NCBI GenBank assembly: GCA_030668875.1
Contig: DAOVER010000011.1
Coordinates: 1-32,000, forward strand
DNA from: Candidatus Heimdallarchaeota archaeon
GTDB taxonomy: Archaea; Asgardarchaeota; Heimdallarchaeia; Heimdallarchaeales; Heimdallarchaeaceae
Direction: 5' to 3'
Length of the DNA: 32,000 nt
The notes under the pieces are model-generated. The model did no database searches, was not told the origin of the DNA, and saw nothing but the letters and a program-made list of their open reading frames with translations. Within the stretch, counting starts at the first letter, position 1; each line of letters starts with the position of its first letter. The position numbers and the translations under genes are program-made. Positions 10,849 to 31,826 of the stretch are shown here, in pieces.

Positions 10849-11673
10849 ATGAACGACTTTTCCCAATATCTGCTTCAAGCAAGAAAAGATGTTGAAAGTT
10901 GCATAGAAATATGGACAAATATTTTCGAAGAAAACTATAGTGATAAAATTGAATTTATGTATTCTAAAGGGTCAGCAACAAAAGAATGGGAAAGTCTAAT
11001 AGATTATGTTCCTATCATTAGTGATGTTGATATTCACATTAAAATCCATGAGGATACTACTATTTTCGAGAATTTAACTGATGCTTTTATCAGCTCAATA
11101 GGAATCTCACAGACCTATGAGGACATATTTGTTGAGAAGAACCCTGATCGTCTTCATATACCACGAACGCAGATAGTAAATATAAGTGACATAGAAAATT
11201 CAGAATCGTTTATTTTCCCAAAACCAGAAGATGTTAGAGTTTTAATAGGAAAATACCCTAAATTCGAGGATAAGCCCACAGATTTTATTAGAAGAATTGA
11301 TCGATTCAATTTAATAGAACAAGAAGATTTTCTTGCAACACTTCCTAAAACTGTCATTGATCGAACTGGTCTCGATCTCTGGAATTTGATTAGAAGGATG
11401 GTCTGGAGAGTATCTCCTACTCCAATAAGGCTACTCAGTCAAACACACGAAGAACCTTTAGACATCTGGAAATTAAATAGAACTTCCTTAGTGAAATTAT
11501 TAGAAGAAAAAGGATATGAGCAAATTGCTGAGAATTATCAAGATTATTATTATGAAGGTTGGATAGTTTTTCTAGAAGGTTTTAGTAGTTCCGATAACAT
11601 GCGCAGAATAATTTCTTTGGGTTTCGAAATCATAAAAGATTGTGTAGATGAAGTGAAAAAAATAGGAATTTAA
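10849..11673 (+). CDS. DNA polymerase beta superfamily nucleotidyltransferase (AadA/KNTase-like architecture), substrate unknown
   Basis: YSKGSA...ISDVDIHI gives the hG[GS]...DxD signature, followed by a helical C-terminal domain. Confidence 0.7.
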   Translation: MNDFSQYLLQARKDVESCIEIWTNIFEENYSDKIEFMYSKGSATKEWESLIDYVPIISDVDIHIKIHEDTTIFENLTDAFISSIGISQTYEDIFVEKNPDRLHIPRTQIVNISDIENSESFIFPKPEDVRVLIGKYPKFEDKPTDFIRRIDRFNLIEQEDFLATLPKTVIDRTGLDLWNLIRRMVWRVSPTPIRLLSQTHEEPLDIWKLNRTSLVKLLEEKGYEQIAENYQDYYYEGWIVFLEGFSSSDNMRRIISLGFEIIKDCVDEVKKIGI

Positions 11674-12194
11674 ACAATGTCGAACTGAATGAATTCAATC
11701 ATTTTTGCTAGATTATTGAATTCTTCTCTACCTATGATTCTTTGGTGTTTTGTTTGGTCATATCCAAAAATACTCTTCGCATCACGAAAATTGTTGAACC
11801 AATACTCTAGATGTTGTATTTTTACCGCTTCATCTTGGATAAGAGTTGCTTTTACATTAAATTTTCTAAAACCTTTTTGAATTTTGAACATGTGATTCTC
11901 GGTTGCTAAAATATTTTTTAACCAATCAGCTTCCATTCCTCTAGGGCTATAGAGAGTGAGTTTACCCGTGTATAATCGTCTACAAAGAACAGGTTTAATT
12001 CCTTTCTTACCTGTTTTTCTTCCAATGGTTTGTATTAAAATCATTATTCTTCCTAATCCAAAAAGAGGGAGTAAATATGTCCTATACAAGAAAATAAAAA
12101 CGCGATTTAGTCTCCTTTCAAATTTAGTAAAACCAGATTTTCTTTCTTGATGTCTATAAACAATAGATCCTTCTGCAGGAAGTGTATTAACCAT
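11670..12194 (-). CDS. Deazaflavin (F420H2)-dependent nitroreductase/quinone reductase family (DDN, split beta-barrel)
   Basis: ILIQTIGRKTGK...PV matches the LLLTTxGRKSG...TPL motif and ADWLKNILA matches the W..N motif. The 3' end overlaps the convergent gene by 4 nt. Confidence 0.8.
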   Translation of the reverse strand: MVNTLPAEGSIVYRHQERKSGFTKFERRLNRVFIFLYRTYLLPLFGLGRIMILIQTIGRKTGKKGIKPVLCRRLYTGKLTLYSPRGMEADWLKNILATENHMFKIQKGFRKFNVKATLIQDEAVKIQHLEYWFNNFRDAKSIFGYDQTKHQRIIGREEFNNLAKMIEFIQFDIV

Positions 12195-12246: not shown

Positions 12247-13149
12247 TTAGAATCTATGTACTTGAGCTTTAAGTCCTAATTCATCTACACGCTTTTTCAT
12301 TTCTTCATCAGTTAACTGTCTATTTAATCCAGAGTAAGCCGTTACAGCTGCTTCAAGAACATTGGTCCCAAATGATCTACCTTGAACTCTTGGAGTTGTT
12401 GTGATTACAGCTGCTACACCTCTATCTTTCAAACTGTCGATATCCTCAGCTGTTGTTGTATTTGTCAAGATTATCTTGTTATCCAAGTTATCTGGTGCAT
12501 ATTTTTTCGTGTATAAATAATCTCCAGCTATCACTGTAGCTCTCTCATAGAATTTTTTATATTTGGGTTTTCTTATATCTTGGCTTGAACCAGTCGGATA
12601 AATCCATCGCATAGGAAAACGTCTGACAAATGGTAAAACGATACTAGCAAGCAAAGGAACTTTATCTAATCCTTTTACTGCAATAGGTAAACCTAATCCG
12701 AACATGAAATCACCACAGGTAATTTCTAGTCCGACATCAGCTAATGAACAAGCCATTTCCCATCTATCTACTGCAGTAGACATGAAAGCGGTTTTTGGTT
12801 CATCTTCAAAAATGTCTTTTATCTGGTCATAAGATTCTTGCATTGAGATTCTTTCGATGGTTTTCTTGATACCAGTTCCATCAACAATGGGTGTTTTTTT
12901 GATACCTGAGATTAATCTATCAGCTTGTTTTACTCTATATACTTTATCACCTGTATGAAAAGCAAACATGAAACCACCTGCACCAAAACAATCAACTGTT
13001 CCATCTAATTCTTCAAATCGCTTCTTACACAGTTTTACATCACCATCAACACCCTCTCTACTCATCTCGATTTTTTCATTACCTAATTGTAGAATACCTT
13101 TGTGATCTCTTGAACTACTACCAAGAGATATTGAAATCACTTTCTTCAT
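12247..13149 (-). CDS. Uncharacterised conserved protein of the family often auto-annotated 'quinate 5-dehydrogenase' (paralog 1)
   Basis: Motifs KVISISLGSSSRD, DGTVDCFGAGG, PIVDGTGIKKTIE, AVDRW, IYPTG, IAGD, KIILTNTT and TPRVQGRSFGTNVLEA are shared with 26897-27823. ORF track start is GTG 13158; ATG 13149 is also possible. Confidence 0.75.
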   Translation of the reverse strand: MKKVISISLGSSSRDHKGILQLGNEKIEMSREGVDGDVKLCKKRFEELDGTVDCFGAGGFMFAFHTGDKVYRVKQADRLISGIKKTPIVDGTGIKKTIERISMQESYDQIKDIFEDEPKTAFMSTAVDRWEMACSLADVGLEITCGDFMFGLGLPIAVKGLDKVPLLASIVLPFVRRFPMRWIYPTGSSQDIRKPKYKKFYERATVIAGDYLYTKKYAPDNLDNKIILTNTTTAEDIDSLKDRGVAAVITTTPRVQGRSFGTNVLEAAVTAYSGLNRQLTDEEMKKRVDELGLKAQVHRF

Positions 13150-13256
13150 GATAACCACAAATTACAATTTAATTTTTGAATCAAGTAAAAAGGTTGTTAC
13201 TTGCTTATATAATATCAGCTGAGAACTAAGAAAATTAGATGAAATGGGGTCAATTG

Positions 13257-19662: not shown

Positions 19663-21015
19663 TTAAGAAGTAGCTGCAGTTATGTTAATATCTTCAAGCA
19701 AAACAGCAGGTATGAATGTTGGTGTATTTACTTCCCAGCTTTTTATTTGTTTTAGGTCCTTACCCAATGCTTTGATATTCCCAAAAATGTTAAACATAGT
19801 GTCACTTACTCTTAATTCTCTAACTGGTTTTGAGATTTCACCGTTCTCTATTATGAACATTCCATCTCTAGGAATAGTTGAGAATATCCCATCTGCATAA
19901 CTAGTAAATCTTGTATACCAGTTATTAGTAAGGTAAATTGTTGGTTTGCCTTTGGATATTTCCATTAATTCATCAAATGAATGATCACCAGGTTCAAAGA
20001 ATACATTGGTATTCTGTGGGAAAACAAGCCCAGCATTTCCTGTACTTACTGTTCCTGCTTTTTTAGCTGTTGATGTGTTGTGAATGAAACCTTTCAAAAT
20101 ACCATTCTCAACTAAAACATTCCTACCAGTTGGATGACCTTCATCATCAAACGATCTTGATCCTAGACCATTCGGAAGAAGAGCATCATCATAAACTGAA
20201 ACGAATTCGGGACCTATCTGTTCTCCAATTTTATCTTTTAACCAAGAAAATCCTATCTCTACAGAAAATGGATTAGCAGCTACAGGTGTTGCTGCAACAA
20301 TATCACCAGCTACCTTAGGAGCTAGAATGACATTATATTTCCCAGGTGAGCCATTTACTCCTCCAACTGACATTTTAGCTATTTTTCCTGCTTTTCTTCC
20401 TGCTTCTTCTAAATCAATCCTTGAAGATAATCGTCCAACATCTATTTCTGCTCCCGAACTAGTATCATCAATGAAGGAACGAATTGTATATTCATATTTG
20501 GTTGAATGCGCTTTTGCTCTAGCTCCTCTTGAGGAAACAAGCTGGACTTTTGTTGCATCCCAGTAAAGCACTCCTGCAGATCTTTTCGCTCCTTCTTCTT
20601 GAGCTGCATTGATCGAAGCTGTCACCTTATCGAGAGCTTGTTCGTGGAAATCTATTAGATCTGGATCGCTTAATTCATCAATAGATGGATAACTAAATGG
20701 ACCATCGGATATTCCCATGTAATTCTGATTTGGAGGTAATGAGGAGACAAGCTTATCGAGAGAATCAATAGATGATAAAATTGTTTCAGATGTTAAGTCT
20801 TGGAGATCAACAGCAACTGTTTTTTGATTTTTAACTGCAAAAACACCTAAATTCATAGAAGCCCAATTCTTGACAATTGTTATTTGATTATCAGCAAATC
20901 TAATTTGTGACTTATTGCTTTTTTCTGTCTGTAAAATATAATCTTCAAAACCTAACTCTTGGAGTTTCTTTATTGTTAAATCCATAACATTTTCAGTATC
21001 TAATTTATCTACCAT
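19663..21015 (-). CDS. pmbA: TldE/PmbA family protein (non-catalytic partner of TldD)
   Basis: QIRFADNQIT, GKYNVILAP, VYDDALLPNGLGSRSFDDEGHPT, LVENGILKGF, STGNAG and IENGEI..PV; lacks HExxxH. ATG 21015 has AGGTGA upstream; the ORF track start GTG 21024 overlaps the tldD stop. Confidence 0.9.
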   Translation of the reverse strand: MVDKLDTENVMDLTIKKLQELGFEDYILQTEKSNKSQIRFADNQITIVKNWASMNLGVFAVKNQKTVAVDLQDLTSETILSSIDSLDKLVSSLPPNQNYMGISDGPFSYPSIDELSDPDLIDFHEQALDKVTASINAAQEEGAKRSAGVLYWDATKVQLVSSRGARAKAHSTKYEYTIRSFIDDTSSGAEIDVGRLSSRIDLEEAGRKAGKIAKMSVGGVNGSPGKYNVILAPKVAGDIVAATPVAANPFSVEIGFSWLKDKIGEQIGPEFVSVYDDALLPNGLGSRSFDDEGHPTGRNVLVENGILKGFIHNTSTAKKAGTVSTGNAGLVFPQNTNVFFEPGDHSFDELMEISKGKPTIYLTNNWYTRFTSYADGIFSTIPRDGMFIIENGEISKPVRELRVSDTMFNIFGNIKALGKDLKQIKSWEVNTPTFIPAVLLEDINITAATS

Positions 21016-21020
21016 TACTC

Positions 21021-22469
21021 TCACCTAACCTCCACATTACGAATACGCATGAATGAACCACCATGATAAACAGGTGCGCCCTGCATTGGATCACCTTTGC
21101 CACAAGTAGCAGCGTCAAATTCTAGCAAACTCTTCTTAGCAACTGCATCAACTGAGCCCCATAGTTTGGGAGTTGTAGTTTCAACTACAGGTCTTCTCAC
21201 CATGTGTTTAACTTCACCATTCTCGATTAGATATGCTTCTAATCCTACATACTTGGATTGATATCGTCTGTCATCAATATTCCACTCTGTAAAGTTGTGC
21301 ATCAAGACACCAAGTTTAACGTCCTCTATCAATTCCTCTAATTCGAAATCACCTGGCAACAGATAGGTATTAGCCATTCTAGGGATTGGTTCACGGTTAT
21401 AACCTATTGCTCGAGCTGCTGCTGTACTCTTTGTTTGCATGAAAGCAGCTGATTCTCTATTATGAAGCATATCCTGAAAAATACCTTCCTTTAAGAGATA
21501 TCTTGGTCCGGCCTTTATTCCTTCATCGTCATATTGATAATAACCATAAGAACCTAATAATGAAGGATCATCTATTATTGTAACTTTATCAGAACCTATT
21601 TTTTCACCAATCATGTCTTGTTTAAGATAGCTTTCACCTGCTTGAGCACCTTCTCTTCCTAATATCCTATCTCCTTCAGATGGATGCCCTTGATTCTCAT
21701 GACACATTATACCAATAACATTCGGACCAACTACATAATCTATTGTTCCTTTTGGAGCTTCCTTTGCTTCAGTAACTATTTTTCCCAATGTTCTAACTTG
21801 TTTCTCTATATAATCTTCAATTTTCCAGAAATCTAATGCTTCATACCCACCAGCTTTTCCTTTTTGTATCATTAACTGCTCTTTTGAGCCCGTAGTGGGG
21901 TTTACTGCCACAATCAATCCAAAGAGTTGTAGAAGGTCAGTTTCGCTCTCTATCCTTGCTCCTTCATTAGTTATAATCAATTTCTTTTCTGTTTGATCTA
22001 ACATTTGAAAGAAACGGAACGGTATGATTGCACCAGTTTCTACTTCAGCTGCAATTTTATCTAGATTGATTAATCTGTTAATTTTCTCTTCAGGAGATAA
22101 TTCTAAAGGTCTTTTTCCACTTTGACCAATAGCTTGATAGGTTGCTATGTGAATTTCCTCTTCACTAAACGATATTTTCTTTGTTCGCATATTTCCGCTT
22201 GCTTCAGCCATTTTAGTTGCGAAAGTTACTGCTATATTCATCTCTTCTTTCGTCATCTCATTAAAACTAGCGAATCCTACTCCACCGTCTTTCAGTACTC
22301 TTATTCCAATACCCTTGCTTCTCATTATAGCTCCGAGTTCAGGAACTCCACTTTTCAGAATACTAGTGTTGCTTTTCAAATCAACTAAGCGTGCTTCAAT
22401 ATACTGAGCACCAAGTTTCTCTCCCTTCTCTATTGCTTTTTCAACCAGATCAATTGGTTCTGCAGTCAT
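21021..22469 (-). CDS. tldD: TldD metalloprotease
   Basis: GIGIRV..DGGVGFAS, intact metal motif CHENQGHPSEGDR, YDDEG, IPRMANT and C-terminal CGKGDP...PVYHGG. Confidence 0.93.
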   Translation of the reverse strand: MTAEPIDLVEKAIEKGEKLGAQYIEARLVDLKSNTSILKSGVPELGAIMRSKGIGIRVLKDGGVGFASFNEMTKEEMNIAVTFATKMAEASGNMRTKKISFSEEEIHIATYQAIGQSGKRPLELSPEEKINRLINLDKIAAEVETGAIIPFRFFQMLDQTEKKLIITNEGARIESETDLLQLFGLIVAVNPTTGSKEQLMIQKGKAGGYEALDFWKIEDYIEKQVRTLGKIVTEAKEAPKGTIDYVVGPNVIGIMCHENQGHPSEGDRILGREGAQAGESYLKQDMIGEKIGSDKVTIIDDPSLLGSYGYYQYDDEGIKAGPRYLLKEGIFQDMLHNRESAAFMQTKSTAAARAIGYNREPIPRMANTYLLPGDFELEELIEDVKLGVLMHNFTEWNIDDRRYQSKYVGLEAYLIENGEVKHMVRRPVVETTTPKLWGSVDAVAKKSLLEFDAATCGKGDPMQGAPVYHGGSFMRIRNVEVR

Positions 22470-22491
22470 ATTCAGAAGATATAATTATAAT

Positions 22492-22500
22492 TATTTAAAG
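22492..22500 (-). promoter_or_regulatory. TATA-like box of the tldD-pmbA operon (representative of many such boxes)
   Basis: CTTTAAATA on the minus strand, 23 nt upstream of the tldD ATG. The same spacing recurs for at least 10 other genes in the window (see findings). Confidence 0.55.
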
Positions 22501-22543
22501 ATATTCTCTCAACAATGAAAACATAATAAGATAGTGTAGGATA

Positions 22544-23449
22544 TTATCTTACAGATTCTAATTCAATTTGATATTCAACAAATTCCTTAACTAAATTCGC
22601 TACATCCCTTCCATTTTCGAACAATAAGTCATGTTTGGAATCAGGTAGTATTGCTAATCTCGAGTTAGGTAATAGTTCTCGCAGTTTCATTGAATCTTTA
22701 ACAGAAGTAAGATGATCTTTTTCCCCTACCATAAGTAAAATCGGAGTTTCTAACTTCTTAAGTTCTTCATCTTTATCCCAAGCATATACTGTATTCAGTA
22801 AACTTTGTCTAAAAACATGATATGGCATACTCTTACGTTGTTCTTTTATGATGTTGATATACTTTGGATTAACTGAATCTGATGTAATGATATTCATTAC
22901 TACATGCAAAAGAATATTTTTCACTCTTTCATCCATTCTGTAAAACATTAAAGGAAGCATTCTTGGAAATGGTTCTCTGAAATTAGGTGCACTTGAAAGC
23001 ACTACCGCTGCTTTTGCTCTTTCTGGTTTTAAGCATAGATAGTTTTGAACTATTGCTGACCCCATAGAATGCCCAATTAAGATTAGATTCTTTGGATTGA
23101 AATAATCCACAATTTGTGCTAATTCCTCTGTAAATAATCCTAGATCATAAGAATCTGAGTCAACATCTGAAAAACCATGACCTTTCATATCATAAGCTAT
23201 GATTCTAAAATGAGATCCTAACATTTTTAGTAGATAACTGTAAATTATGCTACTTGAACCCCACCCATGAGCACAAATTATTGTATAATCATATGTAGGA
23301 TTTTCGTTTATATCTACGTAACTAATAGTATAACTTGAACCATTTCTTTGTATCGTTAACTTAGCTCTTTTTTCTGAGAATGGATCGACCATTACCAAAT
23401 CCTCCATTTCCAGTTTAGATGATCTATTTAGTGATAGCATATGGCTCAA
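22544..23449 (-). CDS. Alpha/beta-fold hydrolase
   Basis: AHGWGSS oxyanion loop, YDMKGHGFS, nucleophile elbow GHSMG, GEKD acid and a C-terminal His (SKHDL). About 50-aa N-terminal extension. Start is TTG 23449 or ATG 23440. Confidence 0.9.
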   Translation of the reverse strand: MSHMLSLNRSSKLEMEDLVMVDPFSEKRAKLTIQRNGSSYTISYVDINENPTYDYTIICAHGWGSSSIIYSYLLKMLGSHFRIIAYDMKGHGFSDVDSDSYDLGLFTEELAQIVDYFNPKNLILIGHSMGSAIVQNYLCLKPERAKAAVVLSSAPNFREPFPRMLPLMFYRMDERVKNILLHVVMNIITSDSVNPKYINIIKEQRKSMPYHVFRQSLLNTVYAWDKDEELKKLETPILLMVGEKDHLTSVKDSMKLRELLPNSRLAILPDSKHDLLFENGRDVANLVKEFVEYQIELESVR

Positions 23450-23551
23450 TTATATACTAGTTATCGAACATTTATAAAACTAATCAAATGAAAAGTAAAG
23501 GGCTTAAAAACGTGATGTGTAGCTCTTTACACAAATATGAAAAAAGAGTGA

Positions 23552-25390
23552 TTAGAGTGATTTTTCAAAGAAATCTGACAGCATTTTGAATAAAGTTTTT
23601 TGATTCTTTACTTTCACAATTCCATGACCTTCATCTTCGAAAATATACTCCTCATAATCTATTTTGTGTTCTTCTAGATTCTTCCTAACTTCCTCTACAT
23701 TCTTTGGAGAAACATTGGGATCTCGTCTTCCTTGAATAATTAGTAATTTACCTTTAATATCCTGAACAAAGTTAATGGGTGAGCGTTCAAAATATATATC
23801 TGGCACTTCTGTTGGAGTGCCACCCATCATTTCAGCTGAAAGAGGTTTTAAATCAGGTCTTGTTGTATCGTAATCAATCTCCAGATCAGTCATACCACAA
23901 ATGGGTGCTGAAGCCGCGATGATATCAAATGGAGCTTTTGTTATCCCAAACCAAGCTGAGTACCCCCCATAGCTTGTTCCAGTTATGCCAACCTTACCAC
24001 TTACAGCTGTTCCTTGTGATATAAGTGCTCTAATACCTGAAAGAATATCCTCCTGTTCATCAGCTCCCCACCCTCTGTCTCGTATCGAATCTTCAAAGGT
24101 AATCCCATAGCCAGTTGAACCTCTATAATTTGGATCAAGAACTGTAAAACCTAATTTAGTATAATACTGGATTTGAGAATTAATAGCATCTTCAGAATGG
24201 GCAGTAGGGCCACCATGCACGTATATTATTGTTTTTTCATTCGATTTTTTAGGTTTGTACAACCAACCATGCACATTAACACCATCATGAGATTTCCAGT
24301 CAAAATCTTCAGCAGCAGTCAAATCACTTTTTTGTAATTTTGTTTGTTTCCAAACATAAGTAAGTGATTTGAAATTAACAGGGTTTATGGAATCAATATT
24401 GAATTTAATAATATCATCTGGTTGAGTTGAAGAATAATATTTGCCGATCCAATCCTTAGAATTTAAGGGGGCAATTGGATAATAATTTCCTGATATTCTA
24501 GGTAATTTCGTTTCTTGCAAGGTTTCCACGTTAATAATTGAAACTCTTTTTTTTGCTTTTTCATATTCTGATACAAAGAAATAATTACCAATTCGGGGAA
24601 CAGAAAAATCTTCAATACTTCGTAATGGATCATCGATTACCCATGTGATTTCTTCGGATTCGACATTGTAAATACCAAGGGAGTAATGTTTCTGTTCTAT
24701 GTTATCTTTTGTATCGGTAAGAAACACTATTCTCTTACTATCAGACAACCAAGATGCAAATACTCTTGCCTTCTCACCGAAATTTAATATCTCTCTGTCT
24801 TGATTACCATCTATATCCACAATCCACTTTTGTTCTCCTTTAGGATGGTACTCTTTTCTGCTATATAGTATGTTCTGCCCATTTTTTGATAAATCAGGGA
24901 ATAACCATGTTGGTTTACTAGGTTTTGCTAAACATATCATCTCATCAGTTTCTAAATTGTGTTTGTAAATGTAAGTAGGTTCAATTTCCTTTTTATCTGT
25001 TAAGGAATAATTAGCTCCATATATCAACCATTTCTCACTTGGATGAATTCTCCCTCCTCTCAAGAAGAATGGAGGGTTTTCCATGGTTAATGGAATCATC
25101 TCGAGCGGATTATCTAGATTAATTCTAAACAATCTAACTCTTTCATTTCTACTCTTATCTTCTCCAACCAAAACAGCCTTACTCTTTGGATAGAAATATC
25201 TAACTATTGACATTTCTGGGGTATTTGATAGAGCTATAGGGTTGGAACTACCATCTGTAGGAACATAGAATACATCAATGTTAGGATTGATATTTCTCCA
25301 TGAATAGGCTAAATACTTCCCATCAGGGGAAATTTGAGGTGAATAAATAAAAGGTATTGTAAGCAAATCATCTAAATAATCTTCCTTCAT
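23552..25390 (-). CDS. S9 family (prolyl oligopeptidase/acylaminoacyl-peptidase-like) serine peptidase
   Basis: N-terminal beta-propeller (PQISPDGKYLAY); catalytic domain with VHGGP, NYRGSTGYG, GTSYGG, QGRRDPNV and EDEGHG, so the Ser-Asp-His triad is intact. Confidence 0.93.
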   Translation of the reverse strand: MKEDYLDDLLTIPFIYSPQISPDGKYLAYSWRNINPNIDVFYVPTDGSSNPIALSNTPEMSIVRYFYPKSKAVLVGEDKSRNERVRLFRINLDNPLEMIPLTMENPPFFLRGGRIHPSEKWLIYGANYSLTDKKEIEPTYIYKHNLETDEMICLAKPSKPTWLFPDLSKNGQNILYSRKEYHPKGEQKWIVDIDGNQDREILNFGEKARVFASWLSDSKRIVFLTDTKDNIEQKHYSLGIYNVESEEITWVIDDPLRSIEDFSVPRIGNYFFVSEYEKAKKRVSIINVETLQETKLPRISGNYYPIAPLNSKDWIGKYYSSTQPDDIIKFNIDSINPVNFKSLTYVWKQTKLQKSDLTAAEDFDWKSHDGVNVHGWLYKPKKSNEKTIIYVHGGPTAHSEDAINSQIQYYTKLGFTVLDPNYRGSTGYGITFEDSIRDRGWGADEQEDILSGIRALISQGTAVSGKVGITGTSYGGYSAWFGITKAPFDIIAASAPICGMTDLEIDYDTTRPDLKPLSAEMMGGTPTEVPDIYFERSPINFVQDIKGKLLIIQGRRDPNVSPKNVEEVRKNLEEHKIDYEEYIFEDEGHGIVKVKNQKTLFKMLSDFFEKSL

Positions 25391-25449: not shown

Positions 25450-26025
25450 TCAAAAGATGTGTGGAAACCATTCAGCAAAAGGTACAAATAAAGCAAGAAT
25501 TGGACCCGAAAATATGAAGAAAACTGCTCCTACTATCAAACCAACAACCGTTCCACCTATAATATCTAATACATAGTGTAATCTTAATGATATCCTTGCT
25601 ATGTTCACGCCAATAGTCCATAGACCAAATAACAAACCTAACCACCATACTTCTTGAAAGAAGAGAATCATGAGTATTGATGAAGTTGCCATACGGCTTG
25701 CATGACCACTTGGAAAACTGTAGTAATCTCCTCTGGCTACATATTTTTTTAGCCTGTCATCACTTGGTCTTTTTCTTTTTACTATATATTTGATTAAGGC
25801 TGTAGTTAAGCCTGATATTATTAAAACGAGCAATTGTAAGATATTAATTGTTCTGTCCATGAAAATATCGAAAACAAAAAATATAACAGAGAGAATTATC
25901 CATGGCTGTGAATTACCTGAGAGTGCAAGTATACTAAAGAAAGTTTGATGTTTAGCTGTTCTATCAGCTATTTTTTGTGATACTTTCTTATCCCATTCAT
26001 CTAGGCTTGATTCTTCAATAGCCAT
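25450..26025 (-). CDS. PAP2 family membrane lipid phosphatase
   Basis: KYIVKRKRP (C1), SFPSGH (C2), ARISLRLHYVLD (C3) and several TM helices. ORF track start is TTG 26073; ATG 26025 lies about 21 nt after a TTTTAAAT-like box. Confidence 0.9.
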   Translation of the reverse strand: MAIEESSLDEWDKKVSQKIADRTAKHQTFFSILALSGNSQPWIILSVIFFVFDIFMDRTINILQLLVLIISGLTTALIKYIVKRKRPSDDRLKKYVARGDYYSFPSGHASRMATSSILMILFFQEVWWLGLLFGLWTIGVNIARISLRLHYVLDIIGGTVVGLIVGAVFFIFSGPILALFVPFAEWFPHIF

Positions 26026-26073
26026 ACAAGAGAAGAAGAGGTCTAATTTAAAAAAGTAACTGTCATTTCGCAA

Positions 26074-26886
26074 CTATTCGTACAAATTTCTATTCTCTTC
26101 ATAATATTTTCGAGCAACCAACAGATGTTCAGGTTTGTCGACATCCATTGCAATTTCTCCGTCAAACATTACAGGTGCATATATCCCCCTCTCAATCTTG
26201 AAGATTTTTTTATTAAAAAATTTTAGTAGCCTTTCAAGTGTTAATCGCTTGAAAACGTACCTTAATACAAGAATAGGGTTTAAAATAATTAACTGCCCAA
26301 TTACTGATTTTCTTTGTGAACCTAAATCATCAATCAGTTTTTTATGTTCTAAAAGCTTTCCTGGTTTCACAAGAAGAATGTCCCCACCACAGAATTCTAA
26401 ATCCATAAATTTCATCCAACTTCGTTGGACATTAGGAAATTTTTCCAACATAGTTTCCTTTTTAACTATTGGATAATAGAATATCCCATCAATCTCTCCT
26501 CCTGATTCTTCTTCACATTTGTCAACAAACCTTTGTATCATATCACTTTTAATTAGCGGAACATCTGCAGAGAGAGTGATCATATATTCAGAATGCCCTT
26601 CTTCCTTCCTTATATAATCTTTATAAACATTAACTCCTTTATCGAAAACTGTTCCTTCATCTTCAACAAAAACAACTGGGTAATTGGTGTCCCACTCTTC
26701 TTCAGTCATACCTACAATGTAGATTTTTTCAATGAAGTCACATTTGAGAAATTCCTCTACTTGACGTTCAAGAAATATTTTTGATCCTAACTTAATGAAA
26801 CCTTTCTTTGGAACATTTTCAAGTTCACAAATAATATCATCTTTACTTGAATGTCCAGCTAATATTATGGCGTTCATCTTAATCAT
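26074..26886 (-). CDS. MobA-like NTP-transferase (GT-A fold nucleotidyl/cytidylyltransferase)
   Basis: NAIILAG...PKKGFIKLGSKIFLERQV, LSADVPLI, RSWMKFMDLEFCGGDILL and MDVDKPEHL. Start is ATG 26886 or 26877; the ORF track start 26928 overlaps the upstream gene. Confidence 0.85.
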   Translation of the reverse strand: MIKMNAIILAGHSSKDDIICELENVPKKGFIKLGSKIFLERQVEEFLKCDFIEKIYIVGMTEEEWDTNYPVVFVEDEGTVFDKGVNVYKDYIRKEEGHSEYMITLSADVPLIKSDMIQRFVDKCEEESGGEIDGIFYYPIVKKETMLEKFPNVQRSWMKFMDLEFCGGDILLVKPGKLLEHKKLIDDLGSQRKSVIGQLIILNPILVLRYVFKRLTLERLLKFFNKKIFKIERGIYAPVMFDGEIAMDVDKPEHLLVARKYYEENRNLYE

Positions 26887-26896
26887 TGTAATCTGC

Positions 26897-27823
26897 CTAT
26901 TTTTGTAATTTCTGGATAGTTGGTTCAATTTTTAGTTTTTTCAGATAATCCTCATAGTCCTCTCTTGCCAACTCTCCTTTTTCTCCACTCAGTGCAACTA
27001 TACTTGCTTCAAGAACATTAGTACCAAATGAAACTCCACCTACTCTTGGGGTTGAGGTAATAATGTATTTGATGCCTATTTTCTTAAGTAATTCAACATC
27101 CTTTTCTCTTGTAGTATTTGTAATAATAATTTTTCCTTCCATATCTTCATGAGGCATGTTTCTATTGATAAATAGGAAGTCTCCAGCAATCCATTTTACT
27201 CTTTTGAAATATTTGATATATGTTGGTTTATGTACATCTTGTTTTTCTCCTGTTGGGTATACCCAACTGAAGGGTAATCTGCAAACTATTGGGAGGAGTA
27301 TTTTTGCTAAAGATTTTACTGAACTCATCCTGTGAAGAGCTACACCTAATTGGAATCCCCAAAGTAAATCACCAAATGTGATTAATTTTCTATCTTTACC
27401 AACAAATTCCCATGCACTTTCAGCCATATGCCATCTATCAACTGCACACATATTGAGAAGTGATCTATCCTCTTCTACTTCTTCAGGTAATTTATCCTCA
27501 ATATATTGCATAATCCTCCCTTCAAGAGTACTTTTCATTCCTCCTCCATCAACAATAGGCGATTTATGAACACCTTTAATGAGCTTTTTGAAGACATCAC
27601 GTATCTCATAGCGATTATTTTCTCTTCGAAGATACATATCTGTTCCACCAACACCAAAAGCATCCACTTTTCCATCATATTGAAGCATAAGTTCATTATA
27701 TTTTTTCATATCACCATTTGTACCTATTCTTTCAGCGATGATTGTCTCATTTCCCAGTTGATATTCTCGTTTGAAATCTCTTGTATCAGAACCCAAAGAT
27801 ATTGATATAACATGTTTAGTCAT
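26897..27823 (-). CDS. Uncharacterised conserved protein of the 'quinate 5-dehydrogenase'-annotated family (paralog 2)
   Basis: KHVISISLGSDTRD, GTNGD, DGKVDAFGVGG, PIVDGGGMKSTLE, AVDRW, VYPTG, IAGD, KIIITNTT and TPRVGGVSFGTNVLEA; collinear with 12247-13149 over its full length. Confidence 0.75.
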   Translation of the reverse strand: MTKHVISISLGSDTRDFKREYQLGNETIIAERIGTNGDMKKYNELMLQYDGKVDAFGVGGTDMYLRRENNRYEIRDVFKKLIKGVHKSPIVDGGGMKSTLEGRIMQYIEDKLPEEVEEDRSLLNMCAVDRWHMAESAWEFVGKDRKLITFGDLLWGFQLGVALHRMSSVKSLAKILLPIVCRLPFSWVYPTGEKQDVHKPTYIKYFKRVKWIAGDFLFINRNMPHEDMEGKIIITNTTREKDVELLKKIGIKYIITSTPRVGGVSFGTNVLEASIVALSGEKGELAREDYEDYLKKLKIEPTIQKLQK

Positions 27824-27959
27824 ATTGATTCACTAACATCTTACTAGAAAATTTACTTATTTATAAAACATTACGTGGAACCCTCTAAATTACTCTGTAA
27901 ATGATTACACTCAACTACCAAACAGAAATCTTATATTTGCTTATTTTTGATGATATAAT

Positions 27960-28540: not shown

Positions 28541-29575
28541 TTGTTCATTATATTCGGTGATTATTTGAATAAATCCCCCATTATAGAAGAGATAGCAAAA
28601 AGACTAAAATGCTCTGCAGATGATGTAAAACTCAGAAAAAATTTAACTGGGACATCTACGGCAAACGTATCCGAGATAACTTGGGGGAAGGAGAAACAGG
28701 TTGGGATTTTAAAGCAAAACACAACAAAAGTAGAGTGGTTATTTTATTCCAAAATAGCTTCAGAATTTGATGTACCGGCTCCAGCTCCTATAGCCTTTTC
28801 TGAATTAAGTGATATGCCCTGGATCTTGATTGAAAAGATCCCTCGTGGTGTTCATCCTAGAAAATGGGATAAGGAACACATAGAGAAAGCTATCAAAGTG
28901 TTAGCAGGTTTCCATGCTCAATTTCATAACAAAGAAAATGAGAAACTATTTGATAATTTTCGTAAGAAAACAACAAAGGAATGGGACACAACTAAAAAAA
29001 GACTGCTAGAAAACCTCAAACGAGCTTCAAAAATAGCTGAAAACTACAAGGGAAAGTATCCCATACTGAAATCTGAATTCGATTATGTCAAGAGGAAACT
29101 GAAATCAAAAAATTATCTTGATGATCTGCTTGCAGGTGGAACATCTTTATTACATGGTGATGTGTGGATTTACAATTTCATGAATGTGCCTAATTGTTCT
29201 TGTCTTCTAGATTGGCAAGAATGTTTCTTTGGTCCTCCCGCATGGGAGTTCCTCTACTTCTATGATCTTATCCCTCTTCTAATAGATGGTATCAAAGTAA
29301 GCACAAGAGTTAACCCATTTACATTTGATGAATTACTAAAAATTTATCATTCTGAGTTCAAGAAACAAGGAGGAAAGATAACTCTTACAAAATTCAAACA
29401 ATCACTTAAAGCTGCGGTATCCTTTCAAATAGCTTATTTCTGGGCAAAGATACTCAAACCAGATGTGATCCATTTGCATGGAGGAAGGTACTTCATTGTA
29501 AGAACATTACGTCTCTTACCTTCACGAAAAGTTATGCGTGAACATTTCAGGAAACTTCTGGAACTAAGTAAGTAA
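28541..29575 (+). CDS. APH/choline-kinase-like small-molecule phosphotransferase
   Basis: Brenner motif LLHGDVWIYNF, metal motif LLDWQE, WILIEKI hinge and LAGFHA. The TTG start is uncertain. Confidence 0.8.
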   Translation: MFIIFGDYLNKSPIIEEIAKRLKCSADDVKLRKNLTGTSTANVSEITWGKEKQVGILKQNTTKVEWLFYSKIASEFDVPAPAPIAFSELSDMPWILIEKIPRGVHPRKWDKEHIEKAIKVLAGFHAQFHNKENEKLFDNFRKKTTKEWDTTKKRLLENLKRASKIAENYKGKYPILKSEFDYVKRKLKSKNYLDDLLAGGTSLLHGDVWIYNFMNVPNCSCLLDWQECFFGPPAWEFLYFYDLIPLLIDGIKVSTRVNPFTFDELLKIYHSEFKKQGGKITLTKFKQSLKAAVSFQIAYFWAKILKPDVIHLHGGRYFIVRTLRLLPSRKVMREHFRKLLELSK

Positions 29576-29646: not shown

Positions 29647-30726
29647 ATGAGTGAATATATGGATATAGAAATACAGTTAGCTACTGAAGAACAAAAGAAA
29701 CAGAAACCCGCAGATTCAGAACTAGTTTTTGGAAAAACATTTACAGATTATCTGTTTGAAGTAGAGTATGAGAACGAAAAATGGGGAACTCCTAAAATTG
29801 TCCCATATCATCCTTTTACTCTAGATCCTGCAACAACTGTCTTGCACTATGCACAAGAAATTTTTGAGGGAATGAAAGCCTTCCGCCATCCAGATGGCTC
29901 TGTTCATCTTTTCAAACCTTATAAAAATGCAGAGAGGTTTAATAAATCTGCAGAACGAATGAGTATGCCAACAGTAAACAAAGATTTATTCGTAAAAGCT
30001 ATTATTGAACTGGTTAGACTAGAAAATGAATGGGTTCCAAAATCACCTGGAACGACATTATACGTTAGACCAACAATGATTGCAACTGAAGTAGCATTGG
30101 GAGTTCATCCTAGTGACAAATATCTTTTTTACATCATTTTATCGCCAGTAGGTCCTTACTTCACAACAGGATTCAAACCTACAAAGGTTTATGTTGCAAG
30201 CACACATATCAGAGCTGCACCAGGTGGTACTGGAGAAGCTAAAACTGGTGGAAACTACTCTCCTACTCTCTTGTCACAACAAAAAGCTAAATCACTAGGT
30301 TATCCTCAAGTCTTATGGTTAGACGCCATTGAAAGAAGATATATCGAAGAAGCAGGAGCTATGAACATAATGTTCGTAATCGACGGAGAAATTTACACAC
30401 CTCCTCTTGATGGTACTATTCTTCGTGGAATTACAAGAGCATCAGTACTCGAATTAGCTCAAGATTTGGGATATACTATACATGAAGAACCTATTGAAAT
30501 ATTTAATCTTATTGAGAAAATACAAAATGGCTCTTGTAGTGAAATATTTTGTGTTGGAACAGCTGCTTCTATAACTCCTTTAGGAGAAATATTTTACAAA
30601 GGTGAATCTCACATAGTTAATGGTTATGAGGTTGGGAAAATCACAAAACATCTCTATGATGAGTTAGTAGGCATTCAATTTGGTAAAATTCCTGATAGGT
30701 TCAATTGGATGTATAAAGTATATTGA
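29647..30726 (+). CDS. ilvE: Branched-chain amino acid aminotransferase (fold type IV PLP)
   Basis: LHYAQEIFEGMKAF, LYVRP, PVGPYF, catalytic Lys in AKTGGNY, EEAGAMNI, ILRGITR and GTAA. Confidence 0.96.
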   Translation: MSEYMDIEIQLATEEQKKQKPADSELVFGKTFTDYLFEVEYENEKWGTPKIVPYHPFTLDPATTVLHYAQEIFEGMKAFRHPDGSVHLFKPYKNAERFNKSAERMSMPTVNKDLFVKAIIELVRLENEWVPKSPGTTLYVRPTMIATEVALGVHPSDKYLFYIILSPVGPYFTTGFKPTKVYVASTHIRAAPGGTGEAKTGGNYSPTLLSQQKAKSLGYPQVLWLDAIERRYIEEAGAMNIMFVIDGEIYTPPLDGTILRGITRASVLELAQDLGYTIHEEPIEIFNLIEKIQNGSCSEIFCVGTAASITPLGEIFYKGESHIVNGYEVGKITKHLYDELVGIQFGKIPDRFNWMYKVY

Positions 30727-30769
30727 ATTAAGGAAAAAGTTCTTAATTCTCCCCTTTTCTTACTTTTTA

Positions 30770-31105
30770 ATGAGTTCTATAGATTCCTTAACCACAAAGA
30801 TAATCGAATTTAGAGATGCTAGAAAATGGAAAAAGTTTCACACACCAAGAAATCTAGCTCTTTCATTAGTAATTGAGACAGGAGAGCTTTTCGAAATTAT
30901 GCAATGGAAAGAAGATCACGAGATTCTATCTGATCTCAATCGATTAAAACCACAGCTCGAAGATGAAATAGCAGATATAGCAATTTATCTTTTCTTACTA
31001 GCACATGAATTTGGTATAAATTTAGCTGATGCAATACCACAGAAGATAGTAAAAAACTGTAAGAAATATCCTCTAGAAGAAAAAGCTAAATTTGAAGAAG
31101 ATTAA
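30770..31105 (+). CDS. MazG-like (dCTP pyrophosphatase/RS21-C6-type) nucleotide pyrophosphohydrolase
   Basis: FRDARKWKKFHTPRNLALSLVIETGELFEIMQW and LEDEIADIAIYL..LA. True start is ATG 30770; the ORF track start 30680 overlaps ilvE. Confidence 0.9.
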   Translation: MSSIDSLTTKIIEFRDARKWKKFHTPRNLALSLVIETGELFEIMQWKEDHEILSDLNRLKPQLEDEIADIAIYLFLLAHEFGINLADAIPQKIVKNCKKYPLEEKAKFEED

Positions 31106-31109
31106 TATC

Positions 31110-31826
31110 CTAGCGGATTAAGGCACCCCATCTTTTTGTGAGAACGTATGTTCTTATTCTTCCATTGGCATCATATTTCACATCAAAAAACTTTAACTCA
31201 GTTTTGTTTGCAAGTTTCTCAAAGTTCCTTAAAGGTTTTTTAGTTCTACGTTTGAAGACTTTTGCATTAATTAGATTAATAAATCCTCTAATCAAGGAAA
31301 TAGGGTACAATAAAAGTGACTTTGGAAAATATTCTCCGACTATTATAAGTTGTCCTTCTTTAGCCATTAGTCTTTTACATTCATTTAACAACTCTAGTTT
31401 TTGACTTTTTGTAAGTTTTTCAAGAGCAAATATTAAAATTATATTGAGGTTATATCTTGAAAGTGCACTCATTTTACTTAACGAAAATGGCTTCAGGTCC
31501 ATCTTTTCGAGAATTTTCTCATCATTAACTTCAGATTTTGGGCTTACATAAGATGAAGTCATTTCCCTCGCAATTACAGAGATATCTTGGTTTGCTATTT
31601 CCTCACTGAATTTCCCTATTTTTTCTCCTATTACAATTGTTGGACCATTTTTGAGCTTTTCAAATATCCATTCATGGATTTCAGGAAGAAAAAGCTCCAA
31701 ATTTACAGTTTTTTTCAATTTTGTTGTAACAGATTTGATTGCAGAAATGCTTTCATCTGGTTGGTCTTCTTCTTTCTTCTCTACTTGTGGAATATCTGGA
31801 ACTTCAACATCGGACATTGTTATCAC
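31110..31826 (-). CDS. Class I SAM-methyltransferase-like fold protein with degenerate motif I
   Basis: TIVIGEKIGKFSEEIA...VIAREMT sits where motifs I/II would be; FALEKLTKSQKLELLNECKRLMAKEGQLIIVG is a typical MTase C-terminal half. Start is GTG 31826 (overlapping the upstream stop) or ATG 31817. Confidence 0.55.
   Translation of the reverse strand: MITMSDVEVPDIPQVEKKEEDQPDESISAIKSVTTKLKKTVNLELFLPEIHEWIFEKLKNGPTIVIGEKIGKFSEEIANQDISVIAREMTSSYVSPKSEVNDEKILEKMDLKPFSLSKMSALSRYNLNIILIFALEKLTKSQKLELLNECKRLMAKEGQLIIVGEYFPKSLLLYPISLIRGFINLINAKVFKRRTKKPLRNFEKLANKTELKFFDVKYDANGRIRTYVLTKRWGALIR

Follow-up and report, generated by a model that had tools for sequence, protein, structure and literature searches.

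A conserved bacterial-type module of an uncharacterised enzyme, a TTHA0179-family nucleotidyltransferase and a PAP2 enzyme in a Heimdall archaeon

In Caulobacter, the CTP:phosphoglycerate cytidylyltransferase CpgD (CCNA_01210; PDB 10WG-10WK) makes CDP-glycerate for ceramide diphosphoglycerate (PMC12275187, PMC13228409). CpgD belongs to COG1213 and has its top structural match, at 24% identity, in IMPCT of T. maritima (4JD0) (PMC12275187); its active-site residues are R16, K26 and D112 (PMC12275187, PMC13228409). A second point of reference is TTHA0179 of Thermus thermophilus HB8 (2dpw), which the PDB names 'hypothetical transferase' and for which the literature that could be searched reports no function or ligand. 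Here we describe a locus of Candidatus Heimdallarchaeota archaeon (assembly GCA_030668875.1), located in a window, that is, the whole stretch of DNA analysed, comprising the first 32,000 nucleotides of contig DAOVER010000011.1. The locus consists of a gene that we call X, a nucleotidyltransferase gene (NTPT) and a gene for a membrane enzyme of the PAP2 superfamily. An earlier interpretation of the letters and their translations (the sequence-only reading) had put these genes forward as a candidate lipid head-group module built around a CpgD-type nucleotidyltransferase. The conserved trio, its bacterial type and its Asgard host stand in our analysis, and the link to the CpgD subfamily is not supported, the NTPT being a member of the TTHA0179 family. 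The trio is a genuine, strongly conserved module without a characterised member, and we found no prior description of an X-NTPT-PAP2 module in the searchable literature.

The open reading frames (ORFs) of X, the NTPT and PAP2 lie head to tail on the minus strand, between positions 27823 and 25450. Gene X (27823..26897) encodes a soluble enzyme of 308 residues from a very conserved family for which neither Pfam nor NCBIfam holds a model. Its TAG stop codon (26899-26897) is followed by 10 nt and then by the ATG of the NTPT at 26886, so that the common orientation of the three genes and the 10-nt spacing of the first two, as originally described, are borne out both by the ORF positions and by a reading of the junction. 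From this ATG, which opens the sequence MIKMNAI, the NTPT (26886..26074) has 270 residues; the open frame extends further 5', as far as a TTG at 26928. The PAP2 frame, open from 26073, begins right behind the NTPT stop codon (26076-26074); its first ATG lies 48 nt further on and yields a protein of 191 residues (26025..25450), and a start at TTG yields one of 207. This gene arrangement far exceeds chance: of 80 Chloroflexota loci, 76-79 repeat it, and so do most genomes of the host's order.

For Chloroflexota, scanning species-representative genomes yielded 80 NTPT loci. In 76 of these, X immediately precedes the NTPT on the same strand, PAP2 immediately follows it in 79, and no fourth conserved gene emerged when all ORFs flanking the 80 loci were clustered. 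X-NTPT-PAP2 operons with overlapping reading frames also occur in an Anaerolineales genome and in Heimdall AB_125. Among 150 Asgard genomes, the NTPT is present in 16 and X in 14, all of them in the host's order; of the 18 further genomes of that order, 15 carry the NTPT and 13 carry X, and neither gene was found in the 8 other genomes of the host's class or in the rest of the 150-genome sample. Coordinates put X next to the NTPT in at least 11 of the 14 Asgard genomes with X, and PAP2 follows the NTPT in seven of the nine related Heimdall loci examined. The order kept in Chloroflexota, together with the adjacency in the host's order, upholds the proposal that the three genes form a conserved unit. 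The NTPT beside X in a complete Heimdall genome (G074:C1:934631-935425, L106) has one in-frame TAG; in this genome and in G026, whose NTPT at this locus is 31% identical to that of the window, about 700 nt separate X from the NTPT.

X and the NTPT also occur together in Bacillota, where they are not neighbours. We examined 201 genomes of one phylum, counting the overlap from two lists and attaching no statistic because of the kinship among the genomes. Both genes are present in 151 genomes, X only in 4, the NTPT only in 4 and neither in 42; each is thus found in 155 of the 201 genomes, near-universal, single-copy and unlinked to the other. Because the genes are unlinked there, we regard this profile as the strongest evidence that X and the NTPT act jointly. 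The two genes have fixed housekeeping neighbourhoods in this phylum. In 29 of 30 loci (L146-L175), ispE precedes the NTPT, often with a GntR/FCD regulator between them, and the X loci (L176-L187) show the order dus, a gene for a 186-residue protein resembling helix-turn-helix (HTH) regulators, X, a gene resembling acyl-ACP reductase (AAR), greA and lysS. The HTH-like gene precedes and overlaps X in all 12 of these loci, and the AAR-like gene is present in 11; the 186-residue protein is unrelated to the 159-residue neighbour of X in the window. Conserved co-occurrence in other genomes, on which the sequence-only reading had made its case depend, was therefore found in Chloroflexota, in Heimdall archaea and in Bacillota.

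The NTPT matches the Pfam family NTP_transf_3 (PF12804) at E 1.2e-7, above the cut-off. As a single sequence it matches one solved structure, 2dpw (E 6e-6), and a family profile made from the window protein and 40 relatives (41 sequences) matches 2dpw over its full length at E 8e-56, all other matches being E 7e-10 or worse and restricted to the N-terminal core. An exhaustive HMMER search returned 904 representative clusters at 50% identity, nearly all of 250-280 residues, and the relatives in bacteria that had been expected do exist, the family having members in Thermus, Chloroflexota and Bacillota. In a structural scan, the AlphaFold model (pLDDT 95.4) aligned with 2dpw at Z 24.8 and a root-mean-square deviation of 2.5 A over 231 of 231 residues; other matches were CMP-sialic acid synthetase (Z 18.4), IspD (Z 17.9), GlmU (Z 17.7), CobY (Z 17.6), the CofC-like 7p97 (Z 15.3), IMPCT 4jd0 (Z 14.9, rank 34), MobA (Z 14.0-14.3) and LicC 1jyk (Z 13.2, rank 47). 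The residues G11, D108, P110, R192, K193 and D250 are invariant in the family, and K28, R155, E244, D248 and K251 are nearly so (E244, D248 and K251 at least 90% conserved). Several of these positions are located in a helical C-terminal extension of about 90 residues that canonical nucleotidyltransferases do not have, and the model and the alignment both place a 7-residue helix between the Gly loop and the catalytic Lys. The similarity to TTHA0179 covers the full length and includes the C-terminal RK and E..MDVDK motifs. We conclude that the NTPT is a GT-A-fold nucleotidyltransferase of the uncharacterised TTHA0179 (2dpw) family. Identification as MobA or as CofC was rejected, the NCBIfam scores of 21 bits (cut-off 164) and 20.4 bits (cut-off 105) being about one-fifth of the respective cut-off or less; the NTPT does not cluster with MobA/CofC, and it is such clustering, with use of GTP, that would have told against the head-group proposal.

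The three NTPT motifs originally quoted are all present in the translation, and the wider pattern to which they belong had been read as a mark of the CpgD subfamily. We compared the NTPT with CpgD indirectly, by way of its published closest relative IMPCT 4JD0, and the parts of this test agree with one another. No chain named CpgD was among the matches listed in PDB searches by sequence, profile and structure, and neither IMPCT nor CpgD was among the 60 best PDB matches of the family profile, which LicC matches only at positions 3-79 (E 7e-6). The position of CpgD R16, four residues past the Gly of LAGG, is occupied by K15 in the window NTPT, and this column is variable across 52 family members (K 12, gap 10, N 5, E 5). 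Equivalents of the CpgD-type catalytic Lys (K26) and Mg-binding Asp (D112) are present as K28 (45 of the 52 members) and D108 (all 52). The NTPT thus shares with COG1213 the Lys and the Asp and lacks both the P-loop Arg and the closest solved relatives IMPCT and LicC. A catalytic Lys and a Mg-binding Asp are generic to GT-A nucleotidyltransferases and hence do not discriminate. Because the R16 column is variable, a helix is inserted and the matches to IMPCT and LicC are weak, we assign this pattern to the TTHA0179 family as its signature and not to CpgD.

Gene X belongs to a widespread family without a demonstrated function, as the sequence-only reading had held: more than 7600 relatives were found among 90%-identity clusters, X has no Pfam or NCBIfam match, and scanning 30 members at permissive settings yielded no consistent match. 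Bacterial relatives from Anaerolineae, Thermoflexia and Bacillota are about 45% identical to archaeal X. Over 30 diverse sequences the mean column identity is 59%, and the 47 invariant positions are rich in Gly, Asp, Thr, Ser and Arg and include no Cys. The AlphaFold model (pLDDT 92.6) has two alpha/beta lobes, for which Foldseek returned only periplasmic-binding-protein-like folds at a TM of about 0.4. In an exhaustive structural scan, the AAR 6jzq (Z 14.1, 257 residues) and the carmabin TAD 9e4s (Z 12.8, 254 residues) stood clearly above a background of periplasmic-binding-protein folds at Z 9.5 or less. A feature search of the ESM Atlas with X gave no usable match.

What X shares with the acyl-ACP reductase/TAD group (COG5322) is the fold alone, since no Cys is found in its 47 invariant columns. 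We rejected X as a degenerate AAR paralogue, given an hhalign probability of 0.3% against the AAR-like domain and no profile similarity, and as a shikimate/quinate 5-dehydrogenase, neither PF01488 nor PF08501 matching X or 29 relatives. The match to PF01488 is confined to an additional C-terminal domain that fused forms, P0290 among them, carry; in these bacterial-type metagenomic proteins, X is followed by a PF01488-matching domain homologous to the N-terminal domain of PigE (E 2e-34) and to AAR (E 9e-24). The label 'quinate 5-dehydrogenase' on relatives of X probably stems from such fused proteins. Because X has no invariant Cys, no Pfam Rossmann-domain match and an hhalign probability of 0.3%, we consider it a partner of AAR-like reductases and not one of them. 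The solved AAR-like acyl-thioester reductases act on fatty acyl-ACP. A predicted complex of X and the NTPT scored 0.00 in both runs, which has no bearing either way.

The third protein, an integral-membrane acid phosphatase, matches PF01569 at E 4.9e-18 (65.6 bits against a cut-off of 27.2), and the motifs KX6RP (KYIVKRKRP), PSGH and ARX5HX3D (ARISLRLHYVLD) are all present, as in the PAP2 superfamily. KX6RP, PSGH and (S/A/G)RX5HX3D are kept in the PAP2 proteins of the window, the Anaerolineales genome, AB_125 and another archaeal-type contig; that of the Heimdall genome G015 differs only in the residue that opens the third motif. Orthologues occupying this place in the gene order have 188-190 residues. 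The best named matches, to the NCBIfam models SepP (44.3 bits against a cut-off of 250; E 1.8e-11) and YbjG-type (36.5 against 229; E 4.6e-9), miss the equivalog cut-offs by far, as do those to PgpB (27.2 against 261 bits) and LpxE (26.6 against 177 bits). At the N-terminus of these PAP2 proteins, a tail of about 38 residues rich in Lys and Arg precedes a membrane hairpin, and by the positive-inside rule the active-site loops, and with them the active site, are therefore predicted to lie on the cytoplasmic face.

Overlapping NTPT-PAP2 pairs without X were also found, on a contig with HerA-NurA neighbours (archaeal-type) and in the Heimdall genomes G111 and G015. In G015, the pair lies directly 3' of a homologue of geranylgeranyl reductase (L141/L145, G015:C1:69000-83000), an archaeal lipid enzyme; metagenome scans returned no relatives of this geranylgeranyl reductase-NTPT-PAP2 arrangement. 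L141 was rejected as an independent euryarchaeal lineage: its GenBank label is Methanobacteriota/Euryarchaeota, but G015 is a genome of the host's own order. L124 and L143 hold the closest relatives of the NTPT beyond the host's family (38% identical); the place of PAP2 downstream is taken there by a 5'-nucleotidase/metallophosphoesterase together with a kinase of the APH/fructosamine type, so that a nucleotidyltransferase is again grouped with a phosphoesterase and a kinase. A parallel to this kinase in the window is the APH kinase divergent to X.

Where did the module come from? By the names of near-identical proteins, the host is an Asgard archaeon of the Heimdall group, and the unit looks bacterial-type, in keeping with what had been suggested. 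The Heimdall X proteins form a monophyletic clade in our tree (support 0.999), and since the X family is overwhelmingly bacterial, at least X was evidently acquired from bacteria. A second copy of X (12247..13158, minus strand), 41% identical to that of the trio in pairwise comparison, nests inside a bacterial clade (support 0.956) and not in the Heimdall X clade, an indication that X was acquired on two separate occasions. The neighbours of this second copy are a gene with a weak match to F420H2_quin_red-like (split-barrel) proteins (11670-12194, minus strand), which adjoins it, and a PHP-domain gene; neither an NTPT nor a PAP2 gene lies alongside. The NTPT, by comparison, has multiplied. Three tandem paralogues are located on contig C30 of the host genome (G000 C30:378-3866, L014), C53 ends in a further fragment, and related Heimdall genomes contain up to 6 copies, a lineage-specific expansion. 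The three C30 paralogues fall with Heimdall and other archaeal-type NTPTs into one clade of 39 representatives. Beside the C30 paralogues are genes for three proteins of 239, 319 and 725 residues without a Pfam match.

How might the three proteins act? We propose that X, the NTPT and PAP2 are encoded by one operon and would serve one bacterial-type pathway. X, a soluble two-lobed enzyme, would supply or modify a small phosphorylated or acidic substrate, which the NTPT would join to a nucleotide, taking an NTP and releasing pyrophosphate, by means of two canonical residues, the Mg-binding Asp108 and Lys28, the Arg192-Lys193 pair specific to the family and the C-terminal cluster of E244, D248, D250 and K251. 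PAP2, whose catalytic motifs are intact, would then remove or transfer a phosphate on a lipid- or polyprenyl-linked intermediate at the membrane. The observations behind this proposal are the gene order and its conservation, the family assignments, the intact catalytic motifs and the genome-wide co-occurrence of X and the NTPT. For nucleotide activation of a small molecule followed by a membrane phosphate step, our tentative estimate is a little short of an even chance; we infer the order of the steps and a membrane or envelope end product. A lipid or envelope destination is plausible in view of the membrane enzyme PAP2, the association of X with AAR-like genes and the neighbouring geranylgeranyl reductase and ispE genes. 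Several points weigh against this one-pathway reading. The lipid link depends on the membrane PAP2, a single adjacency to geranylgeranyl reductase and the X-AAR association. X itself has no AAR relationship by profile comparison, and no AAR-like gene was found in three Heimdall genomes and one Anaerolineales genome by single-protein and alignment searches. In Bacillota, X and the NTPT are single-copy among housekeeping genes (ispE-gntR-NTPT; dus-HTH-X-AAR-like-greA-lysS) and PAP2 is beside neither, an arrangement as compatible with a soluble core metabolite as with a lipid. Moreover, the operon holds no transferase able to use an activated head group, and the archaeal and Chloroflexota NTPTs form separate clades, so that NTPT and PAP2 may have been transferred in either direction, together or apart.

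The Bacillota data make a serious rival of a soluble housekeeping metabolite or cofactor, in which X would prepare an activated acid or phosphate that is reduced by the AAR-like partner or nucleotidylated by the NTPT, according to lineage, with PAP2 as a lineage-specific accessory phosphatase. The near-universal, single-copy presence of X and the NTPT in one phylum (155 of 201 genomes each, 151 shared) speaks for it, as do their housekeeping surroundings free of PAP2 (ispE, glmU and prs; coaX, dus, greA and lysS) and the very strong conservation of X (mean column identity 59%), which is typical of core metabolism. We nevertheless think it rather unlikely, because an integral-membrane PAP2 overlaps or abuts the NTPT in Chloroflexota (79 of 80), in Heimdall archaea and on a further archaeal-type contig, and a membrane enzyme so tied to the NTPT makes a soluble product hard to explain; up to 6 NTPT paralogues in a Heimdall genome likewise suggest varied substrates and not one cofactor. 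Another rival is an envelope pathway linked to polyprenyl phosphate, in which X and the NTPT would make an activated sugar, alditol or acid for a cell-surface polymer and PAP2 would recycle the carrier lipid as its pyrophosphate phosphatase. The best named matches of PAP2 are indeed undecaprenyl-diphosphatases (SepP, E 1.8e-11; YbjG-type, E 4.6e-9), CMP-sialic acid synthetase, IspD and GlmU rank directly behind 2dpw among the folds that match the NTPT (Z 17.7-18.4), neighbours are isoprenoid-related (ispE in 29 of 30 Bacillota loci, geranylgeranyl reductase in G015), and several NTPT paralogues per Heimdall genome resemble the diversity of surface-glycan genes. The PAP2 scores, however, fall far short of the equivalog thresholds (44 bits against a cut-off of 250), the 80 loci show no conserved glycosyltransferase, flippase or polymerase next to the trio, and the ispE synteny may simply mirror a conserved origin-proximal gene order in Bacillota; we therefore hold such an envelope pathway to be a clearly unlikely alternative. 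That the three genes are neighbours by inheritance alone, without joint action, seems to us the most improbable of all: each family does occur alone (the second X copy, the NTPT paralogues, the unlinked X and NTPT of Bacillota), but bacteria and archaea share the gene order and the overlapping frames, and the phyletic profiles of X and the NTPT agree almost completely where the genes are unlinked.

What, then, of a head group? In the scheme closest to the sequence-only reading, the NTPT would be a CTP:phosphoglycerate (or polyol-phosphate) cytidylyltransferase whose CDP-glycerate provides an anionic lipid head group that PAP2 trims. This chemistry has a precedent in the CDP-glycerate synthesis of CpgD (PMC12275187, PMC13228409). 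The NTPT also has the generic catalytic Lys and Asp, and its profile matches the CofC-type phosphoglycerate guanylyltransferase 7p97 (E 5.7e-7, Z 15.3), about as well as it matches other nucleotidyltransferases. CpgD, however, is a COG1213 protein nearest to IMPCT 4JD0 (PMC12275187), which ranks only 34th against the NTPT model, with LicC 47th; the R16 column is variable in the NTPT family, a 7-residue helix separates the Gly loop from the catalytic Lys, and other cpg homologues were neither seen near the trio nor specifically searched for. We thus consider this scheme very improbable, although activation of a head-group precursor is conceivable; that the NTPT uses CTP, acts on a glycerate or polyol and serves a lipid head group is conjecture. 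A different and quite unlikely possibility is that the NTPT and PAP2 by themselves make up a new kind of head-group transferase system, in which the NTPT would make an NDP- or NMP-activated compound and the cytoplasm-facing PAP2 would move the phospho-head group from the nucleotide to a membrane lipid. PAP2-type phosphotransferases include sphingomyelin and IPC synthases and LpxT. If this were true, the pair would replace a CDP-alcohol phosphotransferase and, in Heimdall archaea, put a bacterial-type head group on archaeal isoprenoid lipids. The window indeed has no CDP-alcohol phosphotransferase, as had been stated: a search of the whole genome with PF01066 gave no match on C23, the contig that holds the window, and matched two genes, on contigs C52 and C99 only. 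With these two genes elsewhere in the genome, a conventional head-group transferase is available if needed.

Several genes around the trio are kept with it. In the host's family, the syntenic order is a methyltransferase-like gene, a MazG-like gene, the aminotransferase, the APH kinase and (the 159-residue gene), followed divergently by X, the NTPT, PAP2 and an alpha/beta hydrolase. The 136-nt divergent intergenic region contains, 36-45 nt 5' of the X start codon, a TATA-like box TTTTATAAAT (27859..27868, minus strand) read from the sequence, which is a putative promoter element of X. Divergent from X is a small-molecule kinase of the APH/EcKL type (28541..29575, plus strand; Pfam APH, E 8.8e-12), which adjoins X in six of the nine related Heimdall loci compared and is syntenic within the host's family; whether it takes part in the pathway of the trio is uncertain. 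The same uncertainty applies to a class IV (branched-chain-type) aminotransferase (Aminotran_4; 29647..30726, plus strand), likewise syntenic with the trio, whose orthologue lies upstream in divergent orientation in 25 of the 80 Chloroflexota loci and is likewise divergent in Heimdall loci, and which is 28% identical to the Anaerolineales copy. A MazG-like pyrophosphohydrolase (30680-31105, plus strand) and a 238-residue protein with a faint nicotianamine-synthase-like match (31110-31826, minus strand) are syntenic with the trio across the host's family as well. Directly downstream of PAP2 are genes for an S9 prolyl-oligopeptidase-type peptidase, an alpha/beta hydrolase and a PmbA/TldD pair (19663-25390, minus strand), of which the alpha/beta hydrolase and PmbA/TldD genes recur near the trio in related genomes.

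The module brings together two large enzyme families without known function, X with more than 7600 clusters and no Pfam model and the TTHA0179-type NTPT with about 900 clusters at 50% identity, and the one crystal structure of the latter family has gone without an explanation since 2007. The two families are coupled in both bacteria and archaea and near-universal in a major Bacillota phylum, so that solving one member should allow thousands of genes to be annotated and remove a widespread wrong label. Heimdall archaea are close relatives of eukaryotes. One Heimdall order took up the module, in which at least X would be of bacterial origin, and multiplied it; if its product were a membrane or envelope component, the module would bear on how bacterial-type membrane chemistry entered an archaeal lineage.

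Among known systems, the one closest to the window NTPT is TTHA0179, with which it has in common the RK motif and the C-terminal motif E..(M/V)DVD(K/R); the two differ in that they are 21% identical and that TTHA0179 belongs to the 'TGGN' and not the 'CGGD' motif branch. The guanylyltransferases MobA, CofC (FbiD) and CobY are in the same MobA-like Pfam family, NTP_transf_3, but the neighbours of the trio include no genes for molybdopterin, F420 or cobamide. CpgD, IMPCT (4JD0) and LicC (1jyk) resemble the NTPT in the broad GT-A nucleotidyltransferase fold, the catalytic Lys and the Mg-binding Asp; against the NTPT model, 4JD0 is placed below 33 and 1jyk below 46 other chains, and the extra Gly-loop helix and the C-terminal extension of about 90 residues are features of the TTHA0179 family that set it apart from CpgD and COG1213. 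For X, the best structural matches are the cyanobacterial AAR (6jzq) and the carmabin TAD (9e4s). PAP2 shares with BcrC/YbjG/SepP, PgpB and LpxE the PAP2 domain, the three catalytic motifs, a similar size and a multi-pass membrane layout, but unlike these enzymes it opens with the Lys/Arg-rich tail of about 38 residues and not with the first membrane helix.

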